Origin: an uncultured Gammaproteobacteria bacterium
GTDB taxonomy: Bacteria > Patescibacteriota > Microgenomatia > Levybacterales > GWA1-39-11
DNA length: 64,000 nucleotides
Reading direction: 5' to 3'
NCBI GenBank assembly: GCA_964537315.1
Contig: CAZIAP010000001.1
Coordinates: 314,888-378,887 of the forward strand
In this document: positions 2,758 to 61,368 of the stretch, one piece after another
Layout: every line of letters starts with the position of its first letter
Position numbering within the stretch: position 1 is the stretch's first letter
Position numbers and translations under genes: made by a program
The notes under the pieces: model-generated
Told to the model about the DNA's origin: nothing
What the model saw: the letters and a program-made list of their open reading frames with translations, nothing else
Databases searched by the model: none

Positions 2758-3800
2758 TACTTTTTGTTCAAGTAAAATTTCAAAACCATTCTATGTATTG
2801 CATTACGCATAGTTCGAGGAAGCAATATATTTCCTATGAACACGAAGTAAAATTTAGGATTAATTAATATTCTTTTATTCATCGAAATAACTTTTTGTGC
2901 AGTAAATATCATTGCTCTGACCTTATCTATATATGTGCCTTTAAATCTTAATGATATCCAGCTAAACGGGCCATTTATTGCAATCGCGTCATTAGAAAAC
3001 TTTTCATAAATTTTATTTTTATTTTTTATATACCTATATTTATTTTTACTTTCAGCAAATTTAATAAAATTATTAATTACGCCTAGCTCTGCAAAAAGTA
3101 CGTTACCTCTCTCTGATGATTTAGTCCTCCCTGATAAGCCATACCAAATTTTATTTATATAAAGAGGTCTATTAATAAAAAGAACCTTATTTGATACCAG
3201 TAATATTTTTAGCAAAAAATCAGTGTCACAATGAGTATCAACGTTGGCATCAAATCCACCTACTGCATCGAATATTTCTTTTCTAAAAACTAGCCCAGGT
3301 GTGTTAATATAAACTCTATAATTATTTATTTTTTTCCCTAGTACCATATAGTCTAATATATCTCGTGCATTATATATGAACGAAGTCTTATCACTATTTA
3401 TAACCTGTCTTGCAAGCTCTAGATTATTTTGATCCACCATTATTCTTCCTGTGTATGCTAAATCTATTTGTGGATTCTTATCCATATATTCAATTATTTG
3501 ATTGAAGTATTCCTTTTCAAATTTATCATCATCATGAAATAAACAAACATATTTAGTTTTTGCAAGAGAAATGCACTTATTCGTATTTAATATCTCACCA
3601 AGTGCAGGAGAATTTCTATAATATTTCGCAGTGGGGATTATTTTTTTTGAGATGGATTCAGAAACATTGTTATTACTATCATCCCCAATTATTACAGAAA
3701 ATTTAGGATATTGAAGACTTTTGATACTATTAATTGCATCCAGAAATTCGTTCGGACGATTAGCAGTAACTGTAGCTATTGTAAGAAGATTACTAATCAT
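2757..3800 (-). CDS. glycosyltransferase family 2 (GT-A fold)
   Basis: N-terminal Rossmann-like segment TVTANRPNEFLDAINSIKSLQYPKFSVIIGDDSNNN and acidic DXD-type motif FHDDDD. Confidence 0.8.
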   Translation of the reverse strand: MISNLLTIATVTANRPNEFLDAINSIKSLQYPKFSVIIGDDSNNNVSESISKKIIPTAKYYRNSPALGEILNTNKCISLAKTKYVCLFHDDDKFEKEYFNQIIEYMDKNPQIDLAYTGRIMVDQNNLELARQVINSDKTSFIYNARDILDYMVLGKKINNYRVYINTPGLVFRKEIFDAVGGFDANVDTHCDTDFLLKILLVSNKVLFINRPLYINKIWYGLSGRTKSSERGNVLFAELGVINNFIKFAESKNKYRYIKNKNKIYEKFSNDAIAINGPFSWISLRFKGTYIDKVRAMIFTAQKVISMNKRILINPKFYFVFIGNILLPRTMRNAIHRMVLKFYLNKK

Positions 3801-17133: not shown

Positions 17134-17961
17134 TTATTTAAATGATTGAATATATGACACAGGGAATCTTAGTGCTGAGAACAGAGAGAATACAAAACCC
17201 GACCACCCATCCATGAATCCTTTGTGTCTACCGTACGTTGTCACAAACCAGTGTCCAGGGCGTGCGATAAGATATCCGATTGCCTGGGTAAATATCTGAA
17301 AAGAATTCATCTTTTTCCGCTCTGTTTTAATTTCGTTGGCAAATAATGCATTATATCTTTTCCATTTTTGCAGATAAGCAGAAAAATTTTTATATGGATA
17401 GTGCAAAAGAGCGTGATCTAAGTAACCTACCTTTCCTTCGATTACTGCTTGCTCGTGTACGTCCTTTTGTGGCAGTTTTCCCTTCCCTCTTTTATATAAT
17501 CTCACTGTATAGTCAGGATACTGTCCTCCTTTCATGAGGAATCTGCCAAGAAAATAATTTTTACGAGGCATCCAGTAGCCATTAGGCTCAGTTATTAGTT
17601 CATGGTTCAAAGTTTTTGGTTTTTGCTTCTTTGCTCGTGAATCTTGACTCTTGCTTCCACGTCCTAAGACTTGTTTAATTTCTTCTGCAAGTTCAGGAGA
17701 AATAACTTCATCTGCATCCATCTGAAGAATCCAATCACCTGTTGCTTTATCAATCGACTTCTGTTTGTTTATATGAAAGTTAGGAGGATTGTCAGTCACG
17801 GTAACTTTTGCACCATACTGCTTTGCAATCTCTACAGTTTTGTCTGTTGATGTTCCATCAACAATCACTATCTCATCTGCAATGTCTTTTACTGACTCAA
17901 GACATCGAGCTAAGTTTTCTTCTTCATTAAATGTGGCAAGAACTACTGATAACTTTCCCAT
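17134..17961 (-). CDS. glycosyltransferase family 2 (paralog of 34023..34772)
   Basis: LSVVLATFNEEENLARCLESVKDIADEIVIVDGTSTDKTVEIAKQYGAKV; high similarity to the 34023..34772 N-terminal domain. Confidence 0.8.
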   Translation of the reverse strand: MGKLSVVLATFNEEENLARCLESVKDIADEIVIVDGTSTDKTVEIAKQYGAKVTVTDNPPNFHINKQKSIDKATGDWILQMDADEVISPELAEEIKQVLGRGSKSQDSRAKKQKPKTLNHELITEPNGYWMPRKNYFLGRFLMKGGQYPDYTVRLYKRGKGKLPQKDVHEQAVIEGKVGYLDHALLHYPYKNFSAYLQKWKRYNALFANEIKTERKKMNSFQIFTQAIGYLIARPGHWFVTTYGRHKGFMDGWSGFVFSLFSALRFPVSYIQSFK

Positions 17962-22840: not shown

Positions 22841-24535
22841 TTACTCAACCATTTTAACTGCAACTTCACCATTTAAATACTCAACTATATATACAGGCAA
22901 AACAGATTCCAGAAAGTCCTGAGTGCGTCCGACATGCAACACATTTCCTTCGCTTCTTTCATACTCAATCGGCTTGAAAACATATGAATCAAATTCCCTA
23001 TACCCACCTTCAAGATATTTTTTGACATCTTCATGATATTTTTTAGGAGGATACTGCAAGTGATATAAAAAGAAAATATATGATTGATCAAGCGGTGACT
23101 GGTCTGCAACTACTATTTTGTCATACCTATGTTTATTTTTTTCTGTGTATTCCACTACTTGTTTATATCCATACTGCCATTCCTGTGATGAAAAGTGGTT
23201 GTACTGCGAAAAGTATTGATTGAGATAGTAAGCTCCGCTTACAGTAGTAAGAATAAAGAATAAAGTATAAAGTAACGGACTTAATACCTGATACTTCATA
23301 CCTGATACTTTATACCTTGATATAAAAAGGAATGTTTGCACCAAACCAACTGCTCCAAAGATTTGAAATAGTGGCAAAAAATTCAAGGTTCGAACACTAC
23401 TGGGAACATCCCAGGTAACTGCTGCAGGAACTGGAACCAATAAAAACCATCCGAAAATAAAAAGTTTAATGCTTCTTGATATACCGCTAAGTAATAGTGT
23501 ATAGATTCCGATAAGAATGAATGGTAGAGTCCATATGTAAAGGTTTCCCATTGAAGGCGCATGATGTCTTTCGATAGTATCCCCTGTTACGAAAAGCCAG
23601 TTCGGATTAAAGTGCGCAAGGTAATTACCAATTATTATTTTTGTGTGTACTACCCTCGCGTTATTAAATATTATTCCAAGATAGTCACCTTGCATACGGT
23701 TTTGTGCTGTACGTGCATATGCTTCTTGAACCTGAGGATACTCTCGTGCAAATACGCTTACCCCACGTGCTCTGCTCAACGAATCTGGATTGGTAAGTGT
23801 GCTTGAGACAAAAGGAAAAACAATGATAGCACCGATTACAACAGTTAAAATAAGTACTGGTCTGGAAACACTTGATAATATTTTTTTCCAAAATAAAGTG
23901 AGTAACAATATCACCATTAACGGTACAAATAGCTTCTCACTCTGGTATAGATAAAGCGCAGAACCTAGAAACACCACACTAAGTGGAAATAATTTATTTT
24001 TGCGAAGTCCTGCGAAAAAAAACAAAAAACCTAAAATATTAAATGTAACTGCCGCATTCGCTTCAAAGGCTACTCGAGAAAACTGAATATGCCAAGGAGA
24101 AATAGCCAAAAGTCCTGCAGCGACTATTGGGGTTATTGCTGCCCATTTGCCGACTAGTGGACTATCATCTGATTTGTTTTTAACCTTTAAAAATCTCAGA
24201 GACAGAAATTCTTTTACCAAGAAATAAGTAGCGATTACAGCTGTAATCCCAAGCAATGCTGATGGAAGTCTTACTGCAATGTCAGACAACCCAAATAATG
24301 CAATGAGTGGAATAATAAAATAGACATACAATGCAGGTTTAAAATCCCCAAATGACCGAATTGTTAGGGGTAAAAACTCTCCATATTCATCTCTACCTGT
24401 TTGCAAAATTGAGTATGCGTTATATCCTAGCGCTGCCTCATCCCAATCAAGAGATACAGGAATATTCCCGAGCTGCCACAATCTTAGAACCGCGGCAATC
24501 AAAATGACAAAAAATAAAATTAATTTATATTTCAT
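22841..24535 (-). CDS. GT39-family (PMT/ArnT-like) polyprenol-phosphate-sugar dependent glycosyltransferase, tandem paralog 1
   Basis: N-terminus MKYKLILFFVILIAAVLRLWQLGNIPVSLDWDEAALGYNAYSIL...GRDEYGEFLP is the canonical PMT_2 DE-motif loop. Confidence 0.75.
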   Translation of the reverse strand: MKYKLILFFVILIAAVLRLWQLGNIPVSLDWDEAALGYNAYSILQTGRDEYGEFLPLTIRSFGDFKPALYVYFIIPLIALFGLSDIAVRLPSALLGITAVIATYFLVKEFLSLRFLKVKNKSDDSPLVGKWAAITPIVAAGLLAISPWHIQFSRVAFEANAAVTFNILGFLFFFAGLRKNKLFPLSVVFLGSALYLYQSEKLFVPLMVILLLTLFWKKILSSVSRPVLILTVVIGAIIVFPFVSSTLTNPDSLSRARGVSVFAREYPQVQEAYARTAQNRMQGDYLGIIFNNARVVHTKIIIGNYLAHFNPNWLFVTGDTIERHHAPSMGNLYIWTLPFILIGIYTLLLSGISRSIKLFIFGWFLLVPVPAAVTWDVPSSVRTLNFLPLFQIFGAVGLVQTFLFISRYKVSGMKYQVLSPLLYTLFFILTTVSGAYYLNQYFSQYNHFSSQEWQYGYKQVVEYTEKNKHRYDKIVVADQSPLDQSYIFFLYHLQYPPKKYHEDVKKYLEGGYREFDSYVFKPIEYERSEGNVLHVGRTQDFLESVLPVYIVEYLNGEVAVKMVE

Positions 24536-33511: not shown

Positions 33512-33648
33512 GTTAGTTATTGGTTAATAGTTCGTGGTTCACAGTTCATGGTTATTGGTTCACAGTAAAGCTTCAATAAATTGTTCGCGGTTATTGGTTC
33601 ATGGTTCGTGGTACATGGTTAATTCAAAGAAAGCTTCAAAGCATTAAT
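33512..33648. repeat. degenerate tandem/inverted short repeats (GTTATTGGTTCA, GGTTCACAG, AAAGCTTCAA) between convergent gene ends
   Basis: gttattggtt occurs 3 times, gttcgtggt 2 times and ggttcacag 2 times. Related motifs recur in inverse orientation at 34789..34861. Confidence 0.55.
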
Positions 33649-33981
33649 CATTTTCGTAAGTGACAAACATTTCATATATATACGCTTATATTTCTCTTCT
33701 GATAAATACTTTTGATTATTAGCTATAGTAAGTATTGCCACACATTCAAAGCAAGATCCTTTTGCTATATCCAGGAAATGCCGAAAATCTTTCTTTGTTC
33801 TACTAGTTCCCTCTGCTATATTAAGTGTGATAGATACTGCAGCTCTCTGAAGTTGATTTGTTAACCCAAACTGTTCTTCTTTTGGAAATTTTTTTGTAAT
33901 CTGATATATTTCATTACAAATTTTTAATGCATCTTGATACACTCTTAGGTCTTCAAATTTAAATTTTTCTTTTGAGTCCAT
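33619..33981 (-). CDS. four-helix-bundle protein (TIGR02436, the family also found in 23S rRNA intervening sequences)
   Basis: FEDLRVYQDALKICNEIYQITKKFPKEEQFGLTNQLQRAAVSITLNIAEGTSRTKKDFRHFLDIAKGSCFECVAILTIA reproduces the conserved QLRRAAvSi.NIAEG...FL.iA.GS..E pattern. Confidence 0.8.
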   Translation of the reverse strand: MDSKEKFKFEDLRVYQDALKICNEIYQITKKFPKEEQFGLTNQLQRAAVSITLNIAEGTSRTKKDFRHFLDIAKGSCFECVAILTIANNQKYLSEEKYKRIYMKCLSLTKMINALKLSLN

Positions 33982-44021: not shown

Positions 44022-44774
44022 TTAATTATAAATGCCCTTACTAATATTGTATCTGATTTTCAGCAGGTCCTTAACTCCGTTTATTGAATCGTTTATTGGG
44101 TTTACCCTCCTAGTTTCAACGTAAAGCCAGCGAACAGGGACTTCTTTGATAGAGTAATTTGCTTTTTTTGAAAGGTACAAAAGCTCTACATCAAAACCTG
44201 AGGTAACTGCAGACCCTTTTATCTCTTTAAATCCATTGTGTACTTTCTTTATTTTTGTGAATATGTCTTTAGCAGCTTTCTTTTTAAAAACTTTGAAACC
44301 ACACTGAGTATCTTCAATTTCAGGCAACCCCACTAATATTTTTCGAAGAAGTATAGCACTACGAGACATGATTTTTCTGGAAAGAGGTGCTCCTTTTCTT
44401 TCACTTCGCGAACCTATTACAATATCACTTCCTTCTTTTAGGTGATCAATCATTTTTTTAATCTCTTCAATCGGAGTAGCCTGATCCATATCAGTGAACA
44501 AAATATAATCACCTGATGCAGCAAGCATTCCGGCAGTTACTGCACCTGCTTTTCCGGTGTGATTATTTTCAATCAATTTAAATGGCTTGTTTGCGCTAGT
44601 AAACTTTTTAACAAATTCACGACTTCCGTCATTGGATCCGTCATCAACTACAATAACCTCATAAACATAAGATTGTTCATCCAGATATCTTTTAACCTTA
44701 TCTAGTGTTCCTTTCTGAAGATTGGCCATTTCGTTGTATGATGGGATCACTACCGATAAAGATATTTTTTGCAT
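44022..44774 (-). CDS. GT2 polyprenol-phosphate glycosyltransferase-like (Dpm1-like)
   Basis: LSVVIPSYNEMANLQKGTLDKVKRYLDEQSYVYEVIVVDDGSNDGSREFV. Confidence 0.7.
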   Translation of the reverse strand: MQKISLSVVIPSYNEMANLQKGTLDKVKRYLDEQSYVYEVIVVDDGSNDGSREFVKKFTSANKPFKLIENNHTGKAGAVTAGMLAASGDYILFTDMDQATPIEEIKKMIDHLKEGSDIVIGSRSERKGAPLSRKIMSRSAILLRKILVGLPEIEDTQCGFKVFKKKAAKDIFTKIKKVHNGFKEIKGSAVTSGFDVELLYLSKKANYSIKEVPVRWLYVETRRVNPINDSINGVKDLLKIRYNISKGIYN

Positions 44775-46465: not shown

Positions 46466-46814
46466 GAGTAACTTTGCGTTTTTTTATTTTCTCAATTGTA
46501 TACTGTATGCGCTTATCTAAATCAATCTCTTTAATATGCGCAAAACGGATAATGGTTACTAAAATATCCCCGAGCTCCTGTTCGTATGTTTCGTCATTTT
46601 GAGCTGCAAGATTTGAACTTTTTCGACCATGTTTTGCCAGATATGCTCTGGCCATCTCACCAACTTCTTCTACTAATGATAGAATAAGTATTGATCCAAA
46701 CTCTTTTGAGTTTTTTAGATCACTGTCTACCTTATCTAACTGTTTGAAGTACTTACCAAAAGGCGAATCAAATTTTTTCTTATTTTGTTTTTCCATAATA
46801 ATTTCTCGACGCAA
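46455..46814 (-). CDS. MazG-like nucleotide pyrophosphohydrolase domain protein
   Basis: LSLVEEVGEMARAY and ELGDILVTIIRFAH match the EExGE/ELGD motifs of the MazG/all-alpha NTP-PPase family. Its 3' end overlaps maf by 11 nt, convergently. Confidence 0.75.
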   Translation of the reverse strand: MRREIIMEKQNKKKFDSPFGKYFKQLDKVDSDLKNSKEFGSILILSLVEEVGEMARAYLAKHGRKSSNLAAQNDETYEQELGDILVTIIRFAHIKEIDLDKRIQYTIEKIKKRKVTPKI

Positions 46815-47032
46815 ATATGCGGATTGAAACCATAAAACTGCTTAAATTTTAACGTAGAATGTGAATCGAATCAAAGACACGTATAAATAGGCAGGTGTCT
46901 TTATCTTTAGAGTTCAAAAATTCTCGAATATAAGCAGATGTATGATCACAATCTGCCGCGGAATATATGTATTATATGCTAACTTACGCGATTTGTCAAT
47001 ACTAGAGGATAATCCTCCAATTGGCGGAAAAT

Positions 47033-47083
47033 ACCAAGTATTCAGTATGAAGTATCAAATATCAGGTATTAAGCATTAAGTAG
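47033..47083. repeat. period-7 NNNAGTA tandem repeats (same heptad family as at 33133)
   Basis: accaagtattcagtatgaagtatcaaatatcaggtattaagcattaagta. Confidence 0.5.
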
Positions 47084-47119
47084 AGAGTCTGCAGATATCA
47101 AGCTATACTGTGTACCAAT

Positions 47120-47195
47120 ATGTCAAGAACCGATCTTGACATATATATACATTTAGAAGCTAGAAATCAATATGTGTCAAGAACCGATCTAGACA
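47120..47195. promoter_or_regulatory. two copies, about 50 bp apart, of a ~21-bp palindromic site: TGTCAAGAACCGATCTTGACA, then TGTCAAGAACCGATCTAGACA
   Basis: The first copy has perfect 8-bp inverted arms (TGTCAAGA/TCTTGACA); the second has one mismatch. Both lie in the 432-bp intergenic region upstream of the mazG-like gene. Confidence 0.35.
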
Positions 47196-47246
47196 CTTTT
47201 ACTTCAAACCGTAAACTGTTAGCGAAGAGCTACCAACTATGAACTC

Positions 47247-47906
47247 TTAACTATTAACTAAATATCCAACGATATCTCTTATTTCCTGCTCGGTAACTCC
47301 GTGTCCTGAATCGTATTCTTTGATAGTGCACTCTACACCAAGCCTTTCAAGCGTATCAACTACTTTTTTACTTTCTGAAGGTGAAATCATATGATCCTGA
47401 AGTCCGATACTCACAAATGCACGAGTGTCACTATATTTCTGATTGAATTCAGGCTCAAACGGAAGCATAGGATGTAATAGAACTAGATTTTTCATTAATT
47501 GTGGGTAGTAAAATAGCATCGCACAAAGCATATTTGCGCCATTTGAGTATCCTAAAAAAGTCAAATCTTCTGATGAAACTTTATGTTTTTCCATCCAAGA
47601 ACGTATAAATGTTCCTAACTTTCCTGCCTCTTCTTTAATATTCTCCTGATCAAAAACTCCGAATGATATTCTTCTGAAAAACCGATTCATCCCTTTTTCT
47701 TGAACATTTCCCCTCAAGCCTACTAGATTATATTTTTTGTCTAAAAACTCATCTAAAAATAATAAGTCATGCTCATCTCCGCCAGTTCCATGAAGTAAAA
47801 ATAGCGTTTTTTTCGCTCCATTATCTATTTGTGAGTATTTAAAGGTTCCTAAACTTTCTTCCATAGTAAAATTAATCTGATGAAATCTTAGGCAAATTAG
47901 CCTCAA
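47247..47906 (-). CDS. alpha/beta hydrolase, phospholipase/carboxylesterase family (MhqD-like)
   Basis: LFLLHGTGGDEHDLL and GYSNGANM (nucleophile elbow G-x-S-x-G). 219 aa. Confidence 0.75.
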   Translation of the reverse strand: MRLICLRFHQINFTMEESLGTFKYSQIDNGAKKTLFLLHGTGGDEHDLLFLDEFLDKKYNLVGLRGNVQEKGMNRFFRRISFGVFDQENIKEEAGKLGTFIRSWMEKHKVSSEDLTFLGYSNGANMLCAMLFYYPQLMKNLVLLHPMLPFEPEFNQKYSDTRAFVSIGLQDHMISPSESKKVVDTLERLGVECTIKEYDSGHGVTEQEIRDIVGYLVNS

Positions 47907-48813
47907 TCATCTCCCGTTCCGGTTCAAGAAACGGAGGTAGTGCAAGCTTTTTACCAAGATCTCCTTCTTTTTCATCTGCTGTAAAGCCAGGTCCATCAGT
48001 CGCGATTTCAAACAGAATTCCAGCAGGAGTTCTAAAATACACTGATTTAAAATAGAAGCGATCTATTACTTCGGTTGGGTACAACCCGAGGCTAGCAACT
48101 TTATCTCGCATTTTTTGTTGTTCTTCTTCATCACGAGCCCGAAAAGCTATATGGTGTACAGTTCCAGCTGCGTTATATCCCACCTCTTCGGAAGGTAGCT
48201 CGTGCACTTCCAAAAAATTAGCTCGCTTTGAGCCCGGTACGGCAAAAAGATGAATGTGATCATCTACATCCACTTTTTCATAGTTAAAAACGTGGTTCAG
48301 AATTGGCTCGACTGTGGCAAAACTTATTACTGACAAAGAAGCAGAGTAAAAGCTGCGAACTGCATTTTCTTTTGTTACCTCATCAGTAACCCACACATCA
48401 GAATCTTTGTCTAATTCCATCTTGGGTACTCCTACCAGCTCTAATTGCTGATCATCATTATCGTAAAAGAGGATTCTTTTTCTACCGAATCTTTCGATAA
48501 TCTGTTCATGTTTTACAGACAAAGATTCAAATCTTGCTTTCCAAAACTCCAGTGAATCTTCTGGAACTGTCAATGAAATATTTGTAACTAATCCATTACC
48601 TCGCCTACCCTGAACTGATGGCTGAAAAATGAAAAATGTGAGATCCATGCCTGGATGTCCTAGCTTGTCTCCAAAAAAAAGATGATAAGTTTCTACGTCA
48701 TCTTGATTTACAGTTTTTTTCACAAGTCGTAAGCCAACAGTTTTAGTATAAAAATCTATATTTTCCTGTGCGTTTGAAGCAATTGCAGTAATATGATGGA
48801 TCCCACTAGTCAT
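47872..48813 (-). CDS. VOC/glyoxalase-family ring-cleaving dioxygenase (MhqA/E/O-like)
   Basis: GIHHITAIASNAQENIDFYTKTVGLRLVKKTVNQDDVETYHLFFGD matches the conserved N-terminus of the Bacillus Mhq dioxygenases. Two-domain 313-aa length. Confidence 0.7.
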   Translation of the reverse strand: MTSGIHHITAIASNAQENIDFYTKTVGLRLVKKTVNQDDVETYHLFFGDKLGHPGMDLTFFIFQPSVQGRRGNGLVTNISLTVPEDSLEFWKARFESLSVKHEQIIERFGRKRILFYDNDDQQLELVGVPKMELDKDSDVWVTDEVTKENAVRSFYSASLSVISFATVEPILNHVFNYEKVDVDDHIHLFAVPGSKRANFLEVHELPSEEVGYNAAGTVHHIAFRARDEEEQQKMRDKVASLGLYPTEVIDRFYFKSVYFRTPAGILFEIATDGPGFTADEKEGDLGKKLALPPFLEPEREMIEANLPKISSD

Positions 48814-48869
48814 GTAGACATTCTACCACGAAATTATCACTTCTCATGATATAAAGATGTAAGATTATT

Positions 48870-49007
48870 GTTCAAGTCATGTTGACCGAACAGAATATCG
48901 TTATCAAAGGTTGAACCTTTATTAGTAATTTTTCATGCCTAGTCAAGGTTGATCCTTTATAAGTGATTTCTCGTGCTTAACAGAGGTTCAACCTTTGATA
49001 TAAACCC
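48870..49007. repeat. 3-4 tandem ~37-38-bp units, each carrying a palindromic core (AAAGGTTGAACCTTT, AAGGTTGATCCTT, AGAGGTTCAACCTTTGA), upstream of the dioxygenase start
   Basis: atcaaaggttgaacctttattagtaatttttcatgcct / agtcaaggttgatcctttataagtgatttctcgtgctt / aacagaggttcaacctttgatataaaccc. The first core is a perfect 15-bp palindrome. Confidence 0.6.
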
Positions 49008-49010
49008 TTG

Positions 49011-49934
49011 TTATTTTTTTGTTATTTTATTGACTTCGTATCCAAATGTCCAAGTTGCTTCAGGTGAGTATTCCTGAAAAACACTTACCAACTCAAGCCA
49101 AGGATGCTTAGGGTAAAACTCGTGTTCTGGATCACTATGTTCAGGTCTCCAGGGAGTAGATCTTTTCTCAATTCGCAGCAATGAACCTGATGTATTAATT
49201 TTTTGATATTGAATCATCGGATTTTCCTCACTCCAAAAACGGACAAGTCCTGAAGACGGCGGATTATAGTGGTAAAAATCGCCGGTAATATAATTACCAT
49301 CCTGAGGTGTATCAAAATCATTTAAGATATCCATAACCTGACCATCACTTTCAAGATATCTCAGGTGAGTTTTTAGTCCAAAAAAATTACCTAAAGAAAC
49401 TGATTCTATACTAGATGAGTCTTCGTGTTGTTTAACTCTAAAAGAAATCTCAGGAGAGTCTTTTGCTATATTGGCAATCACAGAAAAATGAGAACCATTT
49501 CCTTCAAAGGGATAATCTCCTACTTGGACTGTACCGTTAAACCGATCATACTCGATTTCTATTTGTTGCTCACCCTGGCTGTTAGATGAAAATTTTATAT
49601 TAGTACCTAGACTAAACATTTCTGCATTATTCATCCGGCCATTTGCTACAACCTCAGGTACTATATTGTTATATAATTCCCACTCCCCATTATCTTCATT
49701 AAAATATTTTAAATCGATGATACCCGGTAGAAATTTTGACATCTCAATCCCGATATGTTCGTTATGGAAAAAATACTTTTCAGATACTTCTCTTTCCAGT
49801 AAGTTTGAAGGCAATGCGAGACCTGCCGCGGTAAGACCGGCATATTTTAGTAAATCTCTTCTTGAAATTCTTCGTTCTAATGACATAAAAACAAGCAATT
49901 TGACTACGTAGTATAGCGAGAATATGTTGAACAT
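49011..49934 (-). CDS. secreted protein of unknown function with twin-arginine (Tat) signal peptide
   Basis: MSLERRISRRDLLKYAGLTAAGLALP is a Tat signal (S-R-R-x-L-L-K followed by a hydrophobic stretch). The true start is probably the internal Met (ORF-track codon 17). Confidence 0.55.
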   Translation of the reverse strand: MFNIFSLYYVVKLLVFMSLERRISRRDLLKYAGLTAAGLALPSNLLEREVSEKYFFHNEHIGIEMSKFLPGIIDLKYFNEDNGEWELYNNIVPEVVANGRMNNAEMFSLGTNIKFSSNSQGEQQIEIEYDRFNGTVQVGDYPFEGNGSHFSVIANIAKDSPEISFRVKQHEDSSSIESVSLGNFFGLKTHLRYLESDGQVMDILNDFDTPQDGNYITGDFYHYNPPSSGLVRFWSEENPMIQYQKINTSGSLLRIEKRSTPWRPEHSDPEHEFYPKHPWLELVSVFQEYSPEATWTFGYEVNKITKK

Positions 49935-58224: not shown

Positions 58225-58563
58225 TCATAGGTTTTTATACTGTAAATTTTCTAATGTTTTCTTTAATGCTTGTTTGATATGATCACGACCGAAGCCACTT
58301 TTCAAAAATTTTTCTCTAGCTTTTGCATCACGCTGGTCAGTAAATGACTCGTAGAAAATTAACTTTAACGGTCTGCGGTGCTTTGTAGCACTGACATACC
58401 CCTTTTCATGTTCAATTATTCTTTGATTTAAATTAGTGGTATAGCCTGTATATAACTTGTGATCACGCAGACTAAAGAGAATATATACGTAAAAATTAGA
58501 AGATAAAACGTCTGACGTTTTATTCATTAATAATATAAAATGGGAGAAGAGTAATCGAGTCAA
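58225..58563 (-). CDS. GIY-YIG nuclease family protein
   Basis: YVYILFSLRDHKLYTGYTTNLNQRIIEH contains GIY-YIG motif variants (VYIL...YTGYT). The ~110-aa size is typical of standalone GIY-YIG proteins. Confidence 0.8.
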   Translation of the reverse strand: MTRLLFSHFILLMNKTSDVLSSNFYVYILFSLRDHKLYTGYTTNLNQRIIEHEKGYVSATKHRRPLKLIFYESFTDQRDAKAREKFLKSGFGRDHIKQALKKTLENLQYKNL

Positions 58564-58616: not shown

Positions 58617-58689
58617 TGACCCCACGGGAATTCGAATCCCGGTTTCTGGGATGAGAACCCAGTGTCCTAGGCCTCTAGACGATGGGGCC
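58617..58689 (-). tRNA. tRNA-Glu (anticodon CUC), 73 nt, CCA not encoded
   Basis: Manual fold: acceptor GGCCCCA/TGGGGTC, D-arm GTCT-AGAGGCCTA-GGAC, anticodon arm CTGGG-TTCTCAT-CCCAG (U33, CUC, A37), variable loop AAAC, T-arm CGGGA-TTCGAAT-TCCCG, discriminator A. Confidence 0.85.
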
Positions 58690-58796: not shown

Positions 58797-59046
58797 CCGA
58801 CCTGCCTTACGACAGATTTGAATAACAGTTGTTCACGCGATATCTCGCGTGCCTCCGACGCAGGTTCTACCTGGATTAGGACTTATCAGACTTTCGGATT
58901 ACCTTGCGCGTGCAAGGCGCTATGATTTCCCTTCTGCGGTTAAAATACCTCCGTCGTGGACCCAAGTAGAGTATTCGAGGTGTCCTTCGAAAGACCGCAA
59001 CAGGGGAACCGTACCGAAAAGCCACTAGCTATTCCTTCCATTAGAC
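58797..59046 (-). ncRNA. candidate structured non-coding RNA of unknown class (~250-285 nt, GC-rich, between two terminators)
   Basis: No ORF of 60 aa or more on either strand. GC content far above background. A terminator follows the preceding gene at 59047..59088 and a strong terminator sits at 58762..58796. No tmRNA, RNase P or SRP consensus could be recognised by eye. Confidence 0.3.
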
Positions 59047-59412: not shown

Positions 59413-60010
59413 CGTTTCTTCCCTTCCAGATAGATGTTAAAGATCTGTTGTGCACTTCACAACAAATTACAGTTCACACTCGCTTCATATGCAAGATGTG
59501 AATTGGTTGCCATAAGTATAGTTTGTTAAAAAGTGAGAGTCAATAATAATTAAATTGAGAATAAATGAGGATATTTGTATAACCGGGCGGGGTGGACCCG
59601 CCCGGTGTAAGTGGTCAGAGTCGTCAGATGACGAAGTGTTCCGCATAGATCGCGGAGATTCGTACAAATGACAACCTGTCACTCATGCATCTGCTTTCCA
59701 AGCAGAAATTGCGAAATACCAGGCTAGGCGTTGAGAAGCATACGGAGCTGGTCTCGATCACACGTTAGACAACGACATTTTCGGCAAAAAATGCCGAAAG
59801 CAATCATGTCGTTCAAAACAGAGCTATCGATCTCCAACCCGAACGGACTCTCACGAGTAAGAGAGTCCAGAGTGGTTCGCAATATGCGCGGATTGCGTTC
59901 CCACTTCTTCTCAAGCTTAGCGAAAACATCCTGCAAATCGATCTCACTGTTAATGTGAGACTTCTTCTCGCTGCTTCGTACAACGACAGAGACCTGTGCC
60001 AGCGTCTGAA

Positions 60011-60241
60011 TCATTTTTTCCCCTCCCCCGAGGTTTCAAAAGAACCAAGGCCGATAATGATTTCCTGCATGTATCGAAGGAGTTTTTCAGGATCGTCTTC
60101 GATCCTTACGTTCTCATTGCCATCTTCGGCAAAAGAGATCGTCAACTGATCAGGCTTTACCAATTCAGGCAGCTTCTCATCAGTTGAATTGCCATTTCCT
60201 AAGAAATGGTCGTTCACCGCGCGTTTCCTTTCTGGCTTCAC
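60011..60241 (-). CDS. hypothetical small acidic protein (76 aa), low confidence; lies in a GC-shifted ORF-poor region
   Basis: Protein-like composition (VKPDQLTISFAEDGNENVRIEDDPEKLLRYMQEIIIGLG) but overlapped by ORFs on the opposite strand. Confidence 0.25.
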   Translation of the reverse strand: MKPERKRAVNDHFLGNGNSTDEKLPELVKPDQLTISFAEDGNENVRIEDDPEKLLRYMQEIIIGLGSFETSGEGKK

Positions 60242-60470
60242 TATTAAATATGGATGCCAGAAAGAACCCTTTGTTTCATTACGTCACCCTTCCAGGTAAA
60301 GATGTCAGTAGAGTAAGCGAATGACACTTATTCTACTGACAACGCATAACGGATTGTAAAGACATGCGCACAACTGAACAACAACAGTTGGCACGTTTCA
60401 ACGCTATCGGCTCACGGCATATCCTTTCTCTAAGATCAATGATCTCTGCCTCATCCTGTGATTTATATCA

Positions 60471-60563
60471 CAGACAAAGACCGCCGGAAGAAAAGAGTAA
60501 CTCTCTCCTCTTTCGGCAGTCTTTATAAAGCAGTTTATTGGATTTCGCAATTTTAATGTACTA
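60471..60563. repeat. direct repeat copy A (~95 nt; the homologous copy B is at 61041..61148)
   Basis: The copies share caaagaccgc..gaaaaga..ctcctcttt..cgcag..ttttaatgtacta at about 75% identity. Confidence 0.5.
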
Positions 60564-61040
60564 GATCTCACATTTTTTTACTTTTACAAAAAGTATATTG
60601 GTGTGGGAGCGCATAAGTCGCGCCCCCACTAAAGAAAACAGGAAGTACCTTCATTTGACGATACATTGACCGCCAAGATAATACCTCCTGTCAAGCTGGA
60701 ACCTAATCGGAATGTCCTTTCAATGCATATAGCATTCTGCGTTTTCGATCAATATCACGGTCGCGTGATCTGTGAGGAGCACCATGCTTTCTCTTTAATT
60801 GGTATCGCTTCGCTCGCGACCCCTTCTCTTTTAGTGTCTGAACAGCTTGCATTCGTAACACTTCGAAAAGTGGCTCCATCTCGACGGGCCTCACACCGGA
60901 AATGGAGGTGCCAACAATTGAGAAAGCATAAGATGCTTGCATCGTACTAATCCTCCTACGTTTCGTCGAACTTATTAGGATGTATCCTCAAAAGACTTAG
61001 TTATCCTTTCTACTAGGCCTTTATACATAATCGGGACTTC

Positions 61041-61148
61041 CGACAAACAAAGACCGCGAAAAGAAAAGACAAAAACCTCCTCTTTACGCAGCCCTTGCAA
61101 AAAAACTCCGATTTGAACGGAGTAAATTCCAGTTTTTTAATGTACTAC
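61041..61148. repeat. direct repeat copy B
   Basis: See copy A. Contains the internal hairpin CTCCGatttgaaCGGAG. Confidence 0.5.
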
Positions 61149-61154
61149 TTTTAA

Positions 61155-61220
61155 AAATAAAAAAAGCAACCGTTATTAAGATACAAATTGTCTAAGATCT
61201 TAATATGGTTGCTTTTTAGT
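61155..61220. terminator. bidirectional rho-independent terminator downstream of lon (11-bp stem AAAAAGCAACC/GGTTGCTTTTT with nested TTAAGAT/ATCTTAA)
   Basis: The stem is flanked by A-runs and T-runs on both strands, giving U-tracts in either orientation. Confidence 0.55.
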
Positions 61221-61368
61221 ATACGCTTAAAATAATATCCTGTCAATATACTATAAGGATAATTATTATATGAGTGCCTCTTACAAATTTTAATAAATTT
61301 CTGTAAGTTTAACCGAGATCAAGAAGAAAATTTCTTACGAAGCTGATAAAAACTTAATTTCTTATAGG

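Follow-up and report, generated by a model that had tools for sequence, protein, structure and literature searches.

Upstream of a predicted ring-cleaving dioxygenase and carboxylesterase operon in a Patescibacteria genome lies a series of tandem palindromes, and the question raised by this locus is whether these represent operators through which the operon is controlled. The window, that is, the whole stretch of 64,000 nucleotides analysed here (contig CAZIAP010000001.1), carries the palindromes in the 197-bp spacer (48814-49010) between the dioxygenase gene and an upstream open reading frame (ORF), and an earlier note on this DNA had interpreted them as an array of binding sites for a dimeric repressor. 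The comparisons presented below indicate that the array is probably a young cluster of mobile repeats, resembling repetitive extragenic palindromic (REP) sequences and bacterial interspersed mosaic elements (BIMEs), rather than a set of operators for the operon.

The repeat array and its occurrence among relatives

Three clear palindromes (AAGGTTSAWCCTT) are found in the spacer, with start-to-start distances of 38 and 38 bp. Palindrome 1, AAAGGTTGAACCTTT (48906-48920), is centred at 48913, or -100 from the dioxygenase ATG, palindrome 2, CAAGGTTGATCCTTT (48944-48958), at 48951 (-138) and palindrome 3, AGAGGTTCAACCTTT (48982-48996), at 48989 (-176), with the centre base of the last inverted relative to units 1 and 2. 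The first two units are direct repeats with 76% identity over 38 nt, while units 1 and 3 contain 23-nt arms that are 91% complementary, and TRF reports 2.5 copies with a period of 38. The earlier note had described four tandem repeats of ~37 bp; the tandem palindromes are real, but they number three plus a partial unit, with a period of 38 bp. No full fourth unit occurs at the 38-bp phase on either side of the array, and only a degenerate, shortened and weak partial unit, 27 bp from unit 1, can be discerned by eye (~48878-48905). This comprises a GTTGACC core (48881-48887) followed by GAATATCGT, which on visual inspection resembles a spacer in the related locus L005, and the sole match of a hidden Markov model (HMM) of the repeat unit over this region lies on the minus strand at 48893-48925. 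In a search for other palindrome sites, as proposed in the earlier note, the 11-mer core with up to one mismatch is confined within the 64-kb window to this array and a single further site at 58862, and the unit HMM detects no further copy of the 38-nt unit there. The array is not a chance occurrence.

Alignment of the window with the corresponding loci of close relatives (L002-L005) reveals a ~159-bp insertion present in the window only (48875-49033; alignment columns 90-248), with boundaries that are ambiguous by ~5 nt. This insertion contains the entire array and its A-rich flanks, replaces the C-terminal tail of the upstream ORF (49011-49934, minus strand) and supplies its stop codon, 16 nt past which the array starts. 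It is absent from the aligned loci L002-L005, and the sequence on either side of it is conserved. In L001-L005 the dioxygenase is 86% identical and the gene order is the same, with an ORF carrying a twin-arginine translocation (TAT) signal followed by the dioxygenase, esterase and MazG genes. The upstream ORF overlaps the dioxygenase start in L002-L004 and ends 23 nt before it in L005. More distant orthologous pairs (L068-L072; 78-70% identity) are preceded by other genes, with spacers of 7-69 nt, and the palindrome motif is absent upstream of the operon in both L002-L005 and L068-L072.

One of these relatives does contain the repeats, at a different site. In L005, four units of the same family with 38-bp spacing (3590-3714) are located between the convergent MazG gene and a gene coding for a 367-aa protein, a site which in L001 and L002 is occupied by a 9-nt spacer only, and the unit HMM scores the units of L005 and of the window equally. 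The evidence for mobility thus consists of two presence/absence indels (window versus L002-L005, and L005 versus L001/L002), which, as read from the aligned sequences, represent independent insertions of a single repeat family, one in each of two sister lineages. Independent insertions, one of them at convergent 3' ends without an expected promoter, are incompatible with a conserved operator array.

Two other types of repeat were considered and rejected. A CRISPR (clustered regularly interspaced short palindromic repeats) array is not compatible with a conserved core of only 13-15 nt (<23), with 'spacers' that are 76% alike or with the lack of a cas-like domain in the scanned ORFs. Likewise, replication iterons or an origin, and parS sites, are discounted by the lack of rep or par genes in the scanned ORFs, the 13-15-nt core, the related spacers and the dispersal of copies on chromosomes.

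Palindromes shared with RAYT-like transposase genes

The core of the window array, AAGGTTSAACCTT, is the palindrome that brackets IS200-like HUH/Y1 transposase genes in Patescibacteria. In the loci L052, L054, L055 and L067, palindrome doublets with a distance of 37-39 bp flank an ORF of ~230 aa, in which the Pfam domain Y1_Tnp is matched above its cut-off and the motifs NHFH (HUH) and YIHLNP are present. The best NCBIfam model for these ORFs is the REP-associated tyrosine transposase (RAYT), at 41-45 bits and hence below its 80-bit cut-off. Three further RAYT loci carry palindromes both around and within the gene, with AAGGTCSGACCTT at the ends and internally in L073, CGAGGTTSAACCTCG internally and at the 3' end in L075, where none was found in the 5' flank, and AAGGTTSAACCTT in flanking and internal positions in L076. 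Within these three loci the flanking and in-frame internal palindromes are seen to co-vary, a pattern that may reflect recognition of the RAYT gene by its own product, or its autoregulation. The clade of RAYT-like proteins is large, with >7,700 matches at E <= 1e-10, the named sources of which are mostly Patescibacteria, Parcubacteria or Paceibacterota. The palindrome is shared with these genes, and the array is most likely no dedicated operator set.

Many of the RAYT-like Y1 genes of Patescibacteria contain their own flanking palindrome in frame, in a fixed loop ~40-47 residues after a YHxYNRG motif. Such copies are located at 4216-4234 in L052, 4262-4278 in L067, 1664-1682 in L073, 1662-1678 in L075 and 1676-1706 in L076. 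The in-frame palindrome encodes QGSTL, QGRTL, EGSTF, EGRTF, RGSTS or KGRTF, each of which translates a perfect 15-nt palindrome, and a pentapeptide of this type occurs in 36 of 119 RAYT-like homologues (proteins P0121-P0240). We found no description of an in-frame palindrome in RAYT-like genes.

The structure of the units and their occurrence around transposase genes also bear on two simpler origins of the array, namely the local tandem duplication of a chance palindrome, giving a slippage minisatellite without any link to a transposase, or the scar of a deleted RAYT gene. The 76% identity of units 1 and 2 means that local duplication probably contributed, and as RAYT genes carry doublets on both sides, deletion of such a gene would leave three to four palindromes. 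Slippage alone does not, however, account for the presence of this unit elsewhere in L005, nor for a core that recurs unchanged around transposase genes and in dozens of further genomes, and a tblastn search found no Y1_Tnp coding remnant within 48875-49033. Either of these origins is accordingly considered very unlikely for the array as a whole.

The palindrome is widely dispersed. A scan of species-representative genomes, which did not return the genome of the window, apparently no species representative, recovered 45 loci with two palindromes 37-39 bp apart, against ~3 expected from a rough estimate of chance, and a stricter pattern recovered 17 loci from metagenomes. Approximately half of the 45 loci are in metagenome-assembled genomes (MAGs) named as Patescibacteria (Lipton-, Jorgensen-, Harrison-, Wolfe-, Kaiser-, Azam-, Portnoy- and Saccharibacteria, and Paceibacterota), with the remainder in cyanobacteria, proteobacteria and others. 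Several loci may occur in one assembly, as in one Liptonbacteria MAG (several), SRP144015_co1_62 (three) and NPID01000369.1 (two). The arrays tabulated across the loci are mostly intergenic, and those in L005, L034, L051, L053, L056, L058 and L063 are situated between convergent genes. Among the loci with arrays, none except L005 contains a homologue of the dioxygenase or esterase, and no array elsewhere adjoins a dioxygenase gene. In the hairpin, the apex (AAGGTYSRACCTT) is invariant and the base of the stem differs between genomes. Position counts around 180 oriented palindromes show no conserved tetranucleotide and no GTAG or CGTC tag outside the core, GTAG being seen solely in a copy from L052, where it extends the stem.

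In six Patescibacteria MAG loci, a G+C-richer doublet, CGAGGTTCAACCTCC...AATATTTGGGAGGTTGAACCTCG, is situated inside long ORFs (L007 6173-6221, L012 2715-2763, L018 4337-4385, L035 1115-1163, L047 558-606 and L009 6043-6090). These ORFs were called with a simple ORF caller, and the doublets could represent either intragenic REP insertions or spurious ORFs.

Canonical REP hairpins are 20-40 nt in length and have a conserved 5' GTAG or CGTC tag, or a guide tetranucleotide at the foot of the hairpin. The family described here resembles the REP/REPIN-RAYT systems and BIME clusters of Enterobacteria and Pseudomonas in consisting of short extragenic palindromes, in doublets or clusters able to form longer hairpins, in differing by presence or absence between close relatives, and in its association with a single HUH/Y1 transposase-like gene that has these palindromes on both sides, here in other organisms only. 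It differs in its core of 13-15 nt, the lack of a GTAG or CGTC tag, the invariant apex and variable stem base, the direct tandem units of 37-39 bp, the many RAYT-like genes with an in-frame palindrome, and in its Patescibacteria host. A further likeness lies in its location chiefly downstream of genes and between genes that converge or run in one direction, as given for REPs in two papers (PMC3733652, PMC3337134), the former of which places REPs mostly in intergenic regions and often between convergent genes. With the IS200/IS605 elements, which have a TnpA Y1 transposase and subterminal hairpins, the RAYT-like genes share the Y1_Tnp domain, the HUH and tyrosine motifs and hairpins at both gene ends; the palindromes here are, however, also dispersed without the gene, as non-autonomous copies, and the best NCBIfam model of the ORFs is the REP-associated type and not the IS200 TnpA. 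No description of REP or RAYT sequences in Patescibacteria or the candidate phyla radiation (CPR) was found in literature searches aimed at them, and a phylogenomics paper on HUH proteins does not mention the Patescibacteria/CPR phyla.

A REP-type origin would place the array in the following sequence of events. In the lineage leading to this Patescibacteria genome, a small cluster of BIME-like elements would have been inserted just past the stop codon of the gene upstream, probably with local duplication of units. By analogy with IS200/IS605 and REP-RAYT systems, a RAYT-like transposase would recognise the hairpins in single-stranded DNA and copy or move them. Several observations weigh against this reading. 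REP/REPIN systems have many dispersed copies within one genome, and only one array is present in the 64-kb window, which contains no RAYT gene. The perfect palindrome of 13-15 nt is shorter than in canonical REPs, no GTAG/CGTC tag or common guide tetranucleotide flanks the hairpins around the 180 oriented palindromes, and the repeats formed by units 1 and 2 are direct, not inverted. Copies flanking RAYT genes are on contigs with a higher G+C content (0.44-0.52) and are therefore from other organisms; the proposed link between array and RAYT genes draws on the identical 13-nt core and the same spacing in different genomes, and transposition in this clade is postulated by analogy. A REP-like mobile cluster is nevertheless considered the probable identity of the array. 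The broader proposal, that Patescibacteria (CPR) possess an undescribed REP-RAYT system with an invariant apex, variable stem base, no tag, doublets or arrays at 37-39 bp and a co-varying in-frame copy, of which the window array is a young insertion, is put forward tentatively, as it is somewhat more doubtful than not.

The operon, its probable promoter and the possible effect of the array

The gene pair downstream of the array consists of a two-domain VOC ring-cleaving dioxygenase of the MhqO/PcpA type (47872-48813, minus strand; 313 aa) and an MhqD-like carboxylesterase of the Abhydrolase_2 family (47247-47864, minus strand; 205 aa from the ATG at 47864). The dioxygenase assignment of the earlier note is borne out by the HMM search, with the Pfam Glyoxalase/VOC model matched twice, and the protein aligns over its full length with PDB 1zsw (7.6e-66), Bacillus subtilis MhqO (3oaj; 2.4e-61) and the hydroquinone dioxygenase PcpA (4huz; 4e-39). 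For the esterase, the best NCBIfam model is MhqD (133 bits, below the equivalog cut-off of 325 bits), Pfam Abhydrolase_2 is matched, and the best solved relative is the carboxylesterase PDB 2h1i (4e-34). The two genes are adjacent and co-oriented, with the esterase ATG 7 bases past the dioxygenase stop codon (3-8 nt in the orthologues), and the pair is retained in the Patescibacteria relatives L001-L005 and L070-L072, the named homologues of the dioxygenase likewise being from Patescibacteria. The Pfam, NCBIfam and PDB matches support a pair made up of a hydroquinone-type ring-cleaving dioxygenase and an MhqD-like carboxylesterase, with the substrate being predicted; as the esterase scores below the MhqD equivalog cut-off, the mhqED-like designation given previously holds at the level of family membership only. 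In the ORF upstream (49011-49934), Pfam finds no domain beyond the TAT-type signal.

At this level the gene content is like that of the mhqED and mhqNOP operons of B. subtilis, which are controlled by the MarR-type repressor MhqR. The order here is dioxygenase then esterase, there is no MarR gene among the window ORFs scanned, and the repeats are neither conserved with the operon nor placed like a repressor operator. As an inverted repeat of the 9-9 form, the MhqR box is probably unlike the palindromes of the window. No transcription factor domain was found in the 25 of ~50 window ORFs scanned with Pfam, which include those of at least 100 aa at 44.9-64 kb, except the 250-aa ORF at 44022-44774, and for these 25 ORFs the earlier remark that no regulator is in sight is correct.

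The promoter appears to lie much closer to the dioxygenase gene than the array. An extended -10 element, TGgTAGAAT (48820-48828, minus strand), is located 6 nt before the ATG, and the arrangement of TGnTAnAAT, 6-7 nt and ATG/GTG is conserved in the window, L002, L005, L068 and L072. A block, CTTACATCTTTATATCA (also written CTTACATCTTTATRTCA), at 48847-48863 on the minus strand (-50 to -34) shows one purine transition only across the window, L002, L005 and L068, while its flanks diverge, and is a candidate for a genuine regulatory or UP-like site. The sequence directly 3' of the insertion point is highly conserved in the same four loci. Conservation thus suggests that the operon probably uses the extended -10 element, and that its dioxygenase-esterase mRNA is probably leaderless, with the A of the ATG as its first base. 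The conserved -10 occupies positions -12 to -7, and the palindrome centres, at -100, -138 and -176, are far upstream of this core promoter.

Across the window, 46 of the 49 genes lack a Shine-Dalgarno-like motif (3/49 have one). In many, among them those ending at 17961, 22823, 57612 and 55078(+), a -10-like hexamer precedes the start by 6-9 nt, and leaderless or Shine-Dalgarno-independent initiation may on this evidence be widespread in this organism.

Against this background, it is regarded as highly improbable that the three palindromes bind a dimeric repressor or activator encoded in trans (MarR/TetR-like or other) and that the operon is controlled by this means. The palindromes are nearly perfect, regularly spaced and 5' of the operon, the motif is unique within the window, and sites at -100 to -176 could in principle suit an upstream activator. 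The operator reading is, however, unsupported because the closest relatives lack the insertion, with an upstream ORF that abuts or overlaps the start of the dioxygenase gene, and keep the promoter and operon without the array, because the distant orthologous operons have short spacers without the motif, because the L005 units sit between convergent 3' ends and are absent there in L001/L002, because the palindrome centres lie well upstream of the conserved -10 and -35 region, with no overlap, and because the same doublets flank RAYT-like transposase genes. In addition, no transcription factor occurs among the scanned ORFs, and a spacing of 38 bp corresponds to 3.6 helical turns, which would place neighbouring sites on different faces of the helix. 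The outcome that the earlier note had itself set against its proposal, namely that the repeat is common between genes and has no relation to this operon, is essentially what is observed.

Pairing between units 1 and 3 is predicted to give the RNA of the array, on the transcribed strand, a long hairpin (-40.6 kcal/mol, z = -5.76). This raises the alternative of a domesticated structural element which, whatever its origin, would be kept for its RNA or DNA hairpins; these would stabilise or terminate the transcript of the upstream gene at its 3' end, or else insulate the leaderless promoter against read-through. The long hairpin and the start of the array just past the upstream stop codon are in keeping with such a role, and REPs in other bacteria are reported to affect mRNA stability and termination (PMC3733652). 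The relatives, however, manage without the array, the L005 array folds less distinctly (z = -2.89), and no U-tract follows the hairpin, so that domestication is held to be unlikely, if less so than the other alternatives. With a REP-like cluster as the preferred explanation, the operon would keep its own extended -10 promoter and probably a leaderless mRNA, and the effect of the array on it would likely be incidental; being co-transcribed with the upstream gene, the folded array could protect the 3' end of the upstream mRNA or dampen read-through.

An intrinsic terminator was rejected, the hairpins having no U-tract after them. Among Rfam families, only tRNA-Glu is found above the gathering threshold in the window, and a permissive scan of 46700-49100 returned sub-threshold matches to miRNA precursors only, which are due to hairpin shape alone.

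Neighbouring features and implications

A second palindromic repeat, TGTCAAGAACCGATCTTGACA, occurs twice in the spacer between the esterase and MazG genes (47121-47141 and 47175-47195, 54 bp apart; 0.2 expected by chance), in a region of ~240 bp that is absent in L001 and partly shared by L005. Its outer stem is identical to the REP that flanks the RAYT gene in L054 (TGTCAAGGTTCAACCTTGACA), and a similar palindrome adjoins the AAGGTTGAACCTT array in L050. This repeat may, by its sequence, constitute a second REP-like family. Short tandem heptamer-like repeats (GAATACT/GCATACT/GGATACT, GTGAACN and TAGTTCA/TTGTTCA) are found directly before the starts at 24535, 27955, 33130, 33981 and 34772, and also, in the esterase-MazG spacer, at 47020-47075 and 47218-47246.

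The MazG gene is preceded by a perfect sigma-70 promoter, TTGACA-17-TATAAT (46999-46971, minus strand), and a leader of ~170 nt. The leader region (46797-46999) appears more conserved than the adjacent coding DNA in the window, L001 and L005, and is predicted to fold as a long rod (-40.4 kcal/mol, z = -3.05), with no Rfam match in the permissive scan of 46700-49100. It may be a structured RNA, although a 6S-like RNA or a riboswitch would be speculation. A further region of ~2 kb (59413-61368) has no ORF of at least 100 aa and no Rfam match even at permissive thresholds; its G+C content (0.40-0.42) is above that of the neighbouring 54-58 kb stretch, and it is separated by a small membrane-like ORF from the tRNA-Glu (58617-58689) and a GIY-YIG gene (58225-58563). 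Within a long glycosyltransferase-rich cluster, a gene for a 23S rRNA-intervening-sequence protein (four-helix bundle, PF05635) is located at 33619-33981, and this family is common in the genomes of candidate phyla.

The repeats upstream of the dioxygenase gene are unfit for inferring a regulon or for hunting a quinone-responsive repressor, and the TGnTAGAAT leaderless promoter and the CTTACATCTTTATATCA block would be better regulatory candidates. The comparisons show that repeats of the REP type still come and go in the small, streamlined genomes of Patescibacteria, even among very close relatives, and they link the repeats to a very large clade of 'transposases' with an unexplained role in these organisms. 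The putative REP-RAYT system of Patescibacteria and the in-frame palindrome in the transposase gene merit separate study. If confirmed, the repeats would be usable as strain markers and would provide a tractable case of REP-RAYT persistence in minimal genomes.

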